The position numbers and the translations under genes are program-made. Positions 21,673 to 23,404 of a DNA stretch of 64,000 bases are shown piece by piece. Origin of the DNA: Planctomycetota bacterium (GTDB lineage: Bacteria; Planctomycetota; UBA8108; SXIK01); the NCBI GenBank assembly GCA_965223265.1, contig OZ244999.1, positions 4,704,001 to 4,768,000 of the forward strand, in the 5' to 3' direction. The notes beneath the pieces are model-generated. The model ran no database searches and was not told where the DNA came from. It saw only the letters and a program-made list of their open reading frames with translations. How positions within the stretch are numbered: position 1 is the stretch's first letter; the number at the start of each line of letters is the position of its first letter.

Positions 21673-21916
21673 ACTCCGCCCCCGCGCACTCGCCGAAGTG
21701 GACGCCTTTTGATCGTTCCCACCGTTGCGAATGGACCCGAACCGTCATAGAATGTCCTCCAGATCACTGTAGGGCGTCTCGCGGCCGAAAACGCCGTCGA
21801 GAATCGAGAGCGCGAAAAGCGTGGCGACCCTCGGCACCATCTCGGGATGACCATCTCCGGATGACATCCTCCGGATGACTTGGAGTCGCGGACGCGCAGT
21901 TTGGGAGATCGAAGCC

Positions 21917-22888
21917 ATGAGACGGATTCGCTTCGGAGCGGGTTTCTTGGCCGCTGGCGTTGTTGGATGGGGTCTTTGGGTGTTGAGCCTCGGCGCGCTT
22001 GGGACGTCGGCGGCCAACGCCGACCAGAGAAAGGACGTGCCCGCACCGGCGTCGATTCTGGCGCAGGCCTACAAGAATTTGGTCAAGTCAGGGTCGTACG
22101 AAACAACCATCGCAATCACCGGCGGGGTGACGAAGCGCGACGACCATAAGGTGACGCACCCGACGGTACGACAGAATTACGAAGCGGCGGTGGTCACCTC
22201 GCCACGTCGACCGATCATGAAGGTCACACGGCCGCGGGCGTACCGCACACCCTCCGGCGGCGCGATCGAATCGGCCGGGATCTGGCGCAACATTCATTCC
22301 GACCGGCAGGGGAAGCGCATGGATCGACTGTTCGCGTTTCCTGAAACCGTGCTCGCTCGAGCACTGAAGCACAAGAGGGCTGCTGAGTGGGTCGAACGTT
22401 CTAAGAAAAAGAAGAAGGGCGCGAAGCGATCCAAGGGGAAAAAAGACGAGAAGCTCTCGAGCGATGCGAAGACCAAGAAGAAAGGCAAAACGTCGGTGGC
22501 CAAAGGCCGCGACGCTGAGAAGCCGCCGCTCCCCGGCTACATACGCGTCAATGCGCCGACCAAGGAAGCTCTGCAGCACTTCATTGAGGTCGAGAATTCC
22601 GGCTGCTTCGGTGGCGGCTGAGGTATCTCCAGATTCTTGTCCCGTGTGGACAAGACGATCGCCAACGCCTACTACGAGTTTCTCATCGACGACGAAACTT
22701 TGCTCCCGAAGCGCATCCGCGTCACTGTCCTGACAGGGAGAAAAGGCGGTACGGAAAAAGAAGGCAAGAAGATCGTCGGCGGCGAGCACGTGGTCTTTCA
22801 GTTCTCGTACGCGCTGAAGAAGTTCGGCAAGGTTGAAAGGCCAGAGATCCCGGCACCTGCAAAAAAGCTCCTGGCGAAAGCGAAGTAG
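21917..22888 (+). CDS. Exported protein with in-frame TGA at 22619-22621 (candidate selenoprotein, 323 aa)
   Basis: ORFs 21875-22621 and 22637-22888 share a frame and are separated by one TGA (GCFGGG-TGA-GISRFLSRVDK). Signal peptide present; hairpin just downstream. Confidence 0.6.
22635..22655 (+). promoter_or_regulatory. Putative bacterial SECIS hairpin
   Basis: Perfect 8-bp stem TCTTGTCC/GGACAAGA; loop CGTGT has G at position 2 followed by T; 21 nt between the TGA and the loop. Confidence 0.55.
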
Positions 22889-22933
22889 GTACTCCCTTTA
22901 GCCCGTCGCCGGATCGTCAGCGACGCATCGAAG

Positions 22934-22963
22934 CATGACATGGCAAATCATGACATGGCAAAT
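22934..22963. repeat. 15-bp perfect tandem duplication CATGACATGGCAAAT x2
   Basis: Read directly from intergenic sequence. Confidence 0.7.
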
Positions 22964-23404
22964 CGCTGCGACGCGACGATGATGATGTTGTTGTTGAGCG
23001 CTCGCCGTTCTGGCGACGACGCGCAGACGCCGCGACGCGAAGGGCCCGCGGCTGCAGAAGATCGTCAGCGACGATGGGCGATCTGACATCTGCGCGGCGG
23101 CAGCCTCAGCCATCGCCGCGCCGCGCCCCAGAGGACGACGACCTCGCGCGCCGGCAACGTCCCAGCAGCCGCACACCCTCGACGTCCCTTGAGAGGCTTG
23201 CAGCGATTGCTTCGAGTTTCACGATGCGCGTCGAGTCTGCCGGACGACCTACGAGATCGGGAACCGAAACTCATAGAGTCAGTTGTCCGCAGCCGGCTCG
23301 GTGCTAAGATACTGAAATCAGATATAGAGACAGCGAGCTCAGCAGTGCTGCGGCGGCGCAGGCCGTAGCAACGGCGTGCGCAAGAACCCGCGGGCGGAAG
23401 ATTG

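Follow-up and report, generated by a model that had tools for sequence, protein, structure and literature searches.

LppX, LprG and LprF are mycobacterial lipid carriers (PDB 2byo, 3mh9, 4qa8), and for LprG a cavity with a loop-lined opening has been described that binds triacylated lipids (PMC4709180). The same type of fold is found in the LolA / LolB / RseB-MucB / DUF6612 superfamily. A separate body of work concerns bacterial selenoproteins such as FdhA, SelD and SelW-like proteins, which have a UGA codon and a bacterial SECIS hairpin, modelled in the legend to Fig 2A of PMC13188914 with a loop of 3–9 nt, a stem of 4–16 bp, a G in the first two loop positions, a distance of 16–37 nt from the UGA and an energy of at most -7.5. 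Here we describe a gene from the window, i.e. the whole 64,000-nt stretch of planctomycete DNA that was analysed, that combines features of both. Its predicted product resembles LppX, LprG and LprF in its half-barrel with helices (Z 10.6–11.5) and is probably likewise exported, but it shares only 10–11% identity with them, has no match to Pfam LppX_LprAFG and carries a long Lys/Asp-rich loop and a C-x4-U motif; no MmpL- or Rv1410-like neighbor of genes of this family was seen. Unlike LppX and LprG it has a putative cleavable signal peptide without a lipobox. With the LolA superfamily it shares the fold (Z 7–10) and presumably a soluble periplasmic location, whereas it lacks matches to the corresponding profiles and no linkage to lolCDE was seen. 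In common with FdhA, SelD and SelW-like proteins it has the UGA, a hairpin conforming to the model and a host with the full Sec machinery, from all of which it differs by a new fold and motif (S-G-C-x-x-x-G-U).

A reading frame interrupted by one TGA

The initial annotation proposed that two ORFs of one frame are separated by a single TGA at codon 235, five residues past the only Cys, and re-reading of the sequence led us to the same description. The frame of 323 codons starts at ATG 21917 and ends with TAG at 22886–22888, the TGA is its sole interruption, and the only Cys (codon 230) lies within the motif S-G-C-F-G-G-G-U-G. The positions of all features are given in Table 1. An alternative in-frame ATG is present at 21875, while the database protein P0002 begins at ATG 21917. 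From the TTG at 22637 an 83-aa ORF runs in the frame shared with the upstream part, and the databases carry the two halves as separate entries. Codon 235 is covered by contigs of four public runs with zero differing letters, these runs coming from one study with at most two samples and possibly from the source DNA; the sequencing-error check suggested earlier thus gave a matching codon. Together with the TGA kept in relatives, these contigs rule out a sequencing error or a pseudogene.

The N-terminus had been read as a signal peptide, in agreement with our inspection by eye and with a hydropathy heuristic, by which the query and 97 of 103 pattern-picked database relatives (a set that includes a few non-truncated rows) are positive. 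A lipobox is absent from the query, and a lipobox-like word occurs in 3 of the 103 relatives. Past the putative promoter and ahead of the start codon (window 21838–21880) we noted a partly palindromic sequence of about 14 nt in three almost identical copies, which are a possible operator, and a short direct repeat is located immediately 3' of the gene (window 22933–22965).

Table 1. Features of the gene and its surroundings, in positions of the window
Feature	Position	Strand	Basis
Sigma-70-like promoter match, 9/12 positions, 17-nt spacer; weak	21725..21753	+	Consensus match only; 1 found, shuffles 0.3 +/- 0.6
Shine-Dalgarno-like GGGAG, 9 nt 5' of ATG 21917	21903..21907	+	Sequence reading
Single gene, 323 aa, Sec codon 235, terminal TAG	21917..22888	+	Frame reading, homologues and model
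Putative cleavable signal peptide, about residues 1–34: basic, hydrophobic, A-x-A, lipobox absent	21917..22018	+	By eye and hydropathy heuristic
His77, beta1-beta2 loop, kept with or without Sec	22145..22147	+	55/59 Sec rows, 20/23 non-Sec rows
Lys-rich low-confidence loop with G-x-T-x-V (22484–22498)	22394..22531	+	pLDDT 52–68 over most of the loop
Cys230, putative redox partner of Sec	22604..22606	+	Cys position counts over 79 loci
In-frame TGA, selenocysteine codon 235	22619..22621	+	Conservation across genomes, pooled loci and metagenomes
Bacterial SECIS hairpin, 8-bp stem, CGTGT loop	22635..22655	+	Folding, SECIS-model test and covariation
C-terminal part, called as a separate ORF by gene callers; last three beta strands and final helix	22637..22888	+	ORF list and structure model
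His291, start of the last strand, kept with or without Sec	22787..22789	+	54/59 Sec rows, 22/23 non-Sec rows

Conservation of the TGA across the family

The earlier proposal of a 323-aa selenoprotein is almost certainly correct, judging from the Sec machinery of the host, the TGA kept in relatives and the conserved hairpin: the locus would be one gene, with SelB binding the hairpin and Sec being inserted at the UGA to give the 323-aa precursor. A match was found in 50 of 60 related genomes, and the best match has an in-frame TGA in 50/50. In the phylum sample 28 of 301 genomes gave a match; two marginal ones (G108 and G334, E ~1e-3) were left out, and each of the 26 kept has a TGA-bearing match. 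Pooling of loci resulted in 79 distinct TGA-bearing sites at the motif, and the internal stop located by script is a TGA in the same motif position in 79/79. In metagenomes 17 of 19 loci span the site, again with TGA in 17/17, and a paralogue in the same genome with 27% identity has a TGA at the aligned position. As the true ends of these genes use mixed stops (TAA 22, TGA 13, TAG 11, with 2 cut off), the internal codon is specifically TGA. The homologue check called for in the initial annotation therefore shows relatives that continue past the site with TGA and not with TAA or TAG. Its other concern, a Trp or Arg at the site, is answered by TGA in the homologues, with a single database exception: the library singleton P0023 is of full length and has Arg in the Sec position in an otherwise intact motif. 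The 150 library representatives are proteins, so that an end at the motif is judged from the protein pattern and not from a stop codon; 100 end at the motif, 94 of them exactly four residues past Cys/Ala, and the rest are made up of 23 short C-terminal pieces, 16 full-length proteins and 11 others.

Two alternatives to Sec insertion were rejected. The initial annotation had cautioned that GAGGT might serve as ribosome binding site for a start at TTG 22637. This caveat found no support, as a Shine-Dalgarno-like word with an in-frame start is present in 25 of 67 sequences and codon +6 is CTG in 30 of 67, and internal restart was dismissed because its signals are not conserved. A general recoding of UGA to Trp or Gly is ruled out because the sole tRNA with a TCA anticodon in the ARAGORN output is tRNA-Sec and TGA also terminates genes.

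A conserved hairpin downstream of the TGA

The 8-bp hairpin with a CGTGT loop 21 nt past the TGA, noticed before, was reproduced: nucleotides 22635–22642 pair with 22648–22655, enclosing the loop at 22643–22647, and the 40-nt fold has an energy of -11.9 kcal/mol. With a loop of 5 nt, a stem of 8 bp, a G at position 2, the 21-nt distance and this energy, the query hairpin falls within the bacterial SECIS model. For the homologues the geometric rules of the model were applied, the energy cut-off being used for the query only; 60 of 67 distinct homologous stretches of TGA plus 45 nt passed compared to 516 of 2010 (26%) synonymous-codon resamples, and because the hairpin sequences are mutually related, this fraction and that from the shuffles below are not probabilities. 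Six of the seven non-passing stretches are predicted hairpins with an internal mismatch and one is the distant paralogue. Codon choice within the stretch is strongly biased relative to the family background: Ser +7 is TCC in 60/60 (background 27%), Arg +8 is CGT in 38/40 (15%) and Asp +10 is GAC in 63/65 (49%). One stem pair alternates between C-G (30) and U-A (24), by a silent Leu change coupled to a Lys/Arg change. The covariation score was reached by 0 of 500 shuffles, and pairing amounts to 90%, as against 31–46% in slid controls. Position, codon choices and compensatory pairs kept across 67 distinct sequences indicate that the hairpin is selected as RNA.

Sec machinery and further TGA-hairpin sites of the host

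The initial annotation advised searching the genome for selA, selB, selC and selD, and all four were found: on the single 9.18-Mb contig of the host, selA, selB and selD score above curated cut-offs and tRNA-Sec is present. The other TGA-bearing genomes carry selA in 58/61 and selB in 58/61 cases, and at least one of both in 61/61. Since 219 of 301 phylum genomes have a selA that scores over the cut-off, the use of Sec seems to be very widespread in the phylum and we gave this co-occurrence less weight. The host selD (G000:C1:3460739-3461653, L003) is part of an uninterrupted open frame of 790 aa and may thus encode a fusion protein of the Cys type, whereas an in-frame TGA is present in the selD of L085 and L123.

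Scanning of the host genome for a TGA followed by the same hairpin core yielded 17 sites, this gene among them. Three of these we take, from their motifs, to be SelW-, FdhA- and thioredoxin-type selenoproteins; SelW-like, thioredoxin-like and formate-dehydrogenase-like frames with TGA and SECIS-like hairpin are located at G000:C1 973905 (+), 1238325 (+) and 8400141 (+), and the hairpins of the SelW-like and FdhA-like genes share the CC-NGTNN-GG core with the query. Two more matches with plausible-looking frames, at G000:C1 7197074 (-) and 638441 (-), may be due to chance or may be further selenoproteins. The paralogue mentioned above (G000:C1:6360943-6362013; L004:5857-7035) has the motif S-C-G-G-W-G-U and a weaker hairpin, and is a probable second selenoprotein of the same family in this genome. 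Nine tRNA genes in a tight cluster, perhaps carried by a mobile element, were noted at G000:C1:5388119-5389466.

Predicted fold

We modelled the mature read-through chain with Sec as Cys from a 118-row alignment, and obtained a pLDDT of 89.8 and a pTM of 0.84. The structural matches are headed by LppX (Z 11.5, rmsd 3.3, 155 residues aligned), LprF (10.8) and LprG (10.6), with LolA at 8–10; the first 13 rows consist entirely of LolA/LppX-like folds, LprG and LppX are among the top matches of Foldseek, and the enzyme VioE appears with Z 7.6. The mature protein is thus very likely a LolA/LppX-type open half-barrel with helices above, going by the model, which shows the open antiparallel half-barrel plus helices of the superfamily. 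The earlier guess of a LolA/LppX-like protein is in this way supported by the structure search. The fused protein had also been proposed for comparison with its halves. The stop product alone is still modelled confidently by AlphaFold (pLDDT 85.0, pTM 0.73), but its best Z is 5.8 and it reaches only 4.0 against LppX, compared to 11.5 for the read-through model. The segment past the UGA provides three long strands and the last helix of the model, and the C-x4-U motif is placed in a less confident loop (block mean 77) leading from a helix to the last three strands.

At the sequence level the relationship is very faint, with only 7–14% identity between the query and LppX or LolA. The query has no match to the LppX_LprAFG or LolA family HMMs, and searching the PDB by sequence gave nothing below E 0.09. 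Faint profile matches occur among the 118 aligned members (DUF6612 in 5, SCO4651 in 2 and LolA3 in 1), none of them to the query, and an atlas search with the N-terminal part yielded only leads under 0.9 (LppX_LprAFG on 11% of one cluster, and DUF6612). The fold it has in common with LppX and LolA does not in itself show a function.

Conserved residues in Sec and non-Sec forms

Over the 79 loci, a Cys is located five residues before Sec in 60, six in 7 and one in 2, and 10 have none upstream; 23 of the 60 loci with Cys at -5 have an extra Cys at +1. In L041 and L043 Ala replaces Cys230 and a vicinal C-U is present. In the clade without upstream Cys, all 15 rows printed (duplicates included) have a Cys at +16 from Sec.

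Non-Sec paralogues account for 23 of 82 rows in a quick tree, midpoint-rooted and with the direction of change unassigned, built from loci de-duplicated at 88% identity plus nine library proteins; they correspond to at least three, at best seven, gains or losses. As these rows lack Sec, the fold can evidently do without it in paralogues. Both forms keep His77 and His291, while Val84 and the Thr of G-x-T-x-V in the charged loop track the Sec forms: Thr192 is found in 57 of 59 Sec rows, and among the 23 non-Sec rows there is Thr in 1, another residue in 5 and a gap in 17. No exact C-x4-C counterpart is present among the 23 non-Sec rows, which may explain why the family was missed; the paralogue L035/P0050 has a C-x8-C that ends one residue off.

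Distribution and genomic context

Among 38 relative loci, 34 are labelled as Planctomycetota or a taxon within, 3 as ‘uncultured bacterium’ and 1 as Bacillota. The Bacillota-labelled contig (L116) has a tandem cluster of planctomycete type, falls within planctomycete rows in the tree and is probably mis-binned or mislabelled. All labelled family records are metagenome-assembled, and 26 of the 301 sampled phylum genomes have a convincing member. The plasmid collection gave no match, and the homologous protein search resulted in 9 matches, all unnamed beyond ‘hypothetical protein’. Among RNA data sets none was listed as carrying the gene, which speaks neither for nor against its expression.

In the window the gene seems to stand alone, with a HEAT-repeat gene on one side and a CotH/LTD gene on the other. 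In G007 the gene directly follows selA and selD on one strand, and in G009, which belongs to a different genus, it lies downstream of selA-selD on their strand with one ORF between. Otherwise the neighbors differ by lineage and include TolC-like arrays, TamB/Omp85, and beta-propeller or cytochrome genes. In six loci (L037, L038, L039, L098, L111 and L113) a TolC-like gene is followed by three paralogues in tandem, one with Sec but no Cys upstream of it, one lacking Sec and one of the C-x4-U-C type; the TolC-like identity was checked with Pfam OEP in L098 and L116. The neighborhood analysis showed no conserved operon, and the 92 neighboring or nearby ORFs scanned, some of which are spurious frames, contained neither a conserved redox or lipid-transport partner gene nor LolCDE or MmpL genes.

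Possible functions

Because a Cys precedes Sec by one, five or six residues in 69 of 79 loci, we favor a redox pair, and regard it as quite possible, though short of probable, that the protein is an extracytoplasmic oxidoreductase whose periplasmic Cys-x4-Sec loop acts on a hydrophobic substrate held in the cavity. The protein would be exported to the periplasm and remain soluble and non-lipidated, and Cys230 and Sec235 would sit on a flexible Gly-rich loop inserted ahead of the last three strands. The pair would cycle between thiol/selenol and a selenenyl-sulfide ring, and the lipid-carrier cavity might present to Sec a substrate such as an oxidised lipid, or a lipoprotein by its lipidated end with the Cys. 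In Plasmodium thioredoxin reductase (PMC6272602) a flexible C-terminal arm bears a Gly-rich C-x4-C pair that is proven to act as a redox shuttle; the resemblance, which is one of motif only, lies in the four-residue spacing and the Gly-rich flexible linker, the folds being unrelated. The TsoB rhodanese/DsbD-like selenoprotein (UxxxxU) similarly has the same four-residue chalcogen spacing on an unrelated fold. More tentatively, this could be the first selenoenzyme on a LolA/LppX fold, one that would extract a lipid or lipoprotein tail on which the C-x4-U loop acts, as an envelope counterpart of phospholipid hydroperoxide peroxidase or as a selenoester-forming acyl transferase.

The conservation of His77 and His291 independent of Sec fits a non-redox ligand site and counts against the redox reading. 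The selenoprotein could hold a metal site at one end of the half-barrel, formed by Sec/Cys, His77 and His291 and used for binding, trafficking or sensing of Cu, Zn, Ni or Hg. The two His are kept throughout the family, and by the predicted topology the Sec loop should be at the end of the sheet where the beta1-beta2 loop lies and the last strand starts; in addition, metal-related selenoproteins listed in Table 1 of PMC13188914 have CU motifs that are similar to the C-U/U-C variants. We nevertheless consider it unlikely, as the His pair stays where Sec and often also Cys is lost, and metal-transport genes do not recur among the neighbors scanned.

Another candidate function is the carrying or sensing of lipids or lipoproteins, in the manner of LolA, LprG or RseB, in which a Cys-Sec bond would be a redox switch for the opening or closing of the cavity, with no turnover of substrate. 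The closest folds are indeed carriers and sensors, the fold residues are kept in non-Sec paralogues, and TolC-like, TamB or Omp85 genes are neighbors in some lineages. Against this, a cognate transporter gene is not adjacent, and several classes retain Sec, while an exact Cys counterpart was not found. Such retention is more typical of catalysis, and the switch appears rather unlikely to us.

Quite improbable is the use of Sec as nucleophile in acyl transfer or hydrolysis, with the acyl chain in the cavity, a selenoester intermediate and assistance by His and Asp. It would agree with a lipid-carrier fold that has conserved His and Asp (D76, H77, D245, H291), with the enzymatic LolA-like member VioE among the structural matches and with the clade that still has Sec without an upstream Cys, but the recurrent nearby Cys points to a redox pair, and D245 is constrained by the SECIS sequence. 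Finally, that the TGA is a true stop (yielding a 234-aa protein and the restarted 83-aa one), or the gene broken, or UGA read as Trp or Gly, is highly improbable: separate database entries for the halves, the RBS-like TGAGGT, a confident truncated model and the Arg of P0023 are outweighed by a TGA that is invariant in distinct and metagenome loci amid mixed true ends, by restart signals that are not conserved, by a C-terminal piece that lacks a signal peptide yet completes the barrel, and by a tRNA set and TGA-terminated genes that speak against reassignment.

Relation to catalogued selenoproteins and significance

The initial annotation recognised no known Sec family, thioredoxin fold or CxxU motif in the gene, and we arrive at the same view. 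Neither the query nor any of the 118 aligned members matches a selenoprotein HMM of NCBIfam or Pfam at E 0.01, whereby membership of a known selenoprotein family was dismissed, and in comparison to thioredoxin-fold selenoproteins (CxxU/UxxC) the spacing is four residues and the model a beta half-barrel. Table 1 of PMC13188914, a 2026 list of 119 families, has no LolA-like entry and no CxxxxU motif, and a word search of that paper found no LolA, lipoprotein or Planctomyc-; LolA and Planctomyc- are likewise absent from the accessible parts of deep-Sep (PMC12013277) and SelCysML (PMC13745706). The families of Haft and Tolstoy 2025 were compared as far as they are represented in Table 1 of PMC13188914 and in NCBIfam, and the family list of BSepDB (PMC13326102), seen in part, may bear on novelty. 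Our literature search, which covered papers outside subscription, found no description of the family. It is therefore very probably an uncatalogued selenoprotein family with a fold new to selenoproteins, while the recoding mechanism itself is standard. Its Sec forms far outnumber its Cys forms, which is the reverse of the rule given in PMC13188914.

As the family is narrow (26 of 301 phylum genomes), its general impact is limited. Through it the bacterial selenoproteome gains a fold, a motif and, probably, the periplasm as a compartment, and the family points to selenium chemistry in the handling of envelope lipids or lipoproteins, which is not described in the catalogues compared, as far as their accessible parts go. 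About 100 database representatives are probably truncated at the Sec codon. Because Cys counterparts are nearly absent, the family marks a blind spot of discovery methods based on Cys/Sec pairs, and if the reading as a lipid-acting selenoenzyme is true, it would be a family that such searches miss because Cys forms hardly occur in it.
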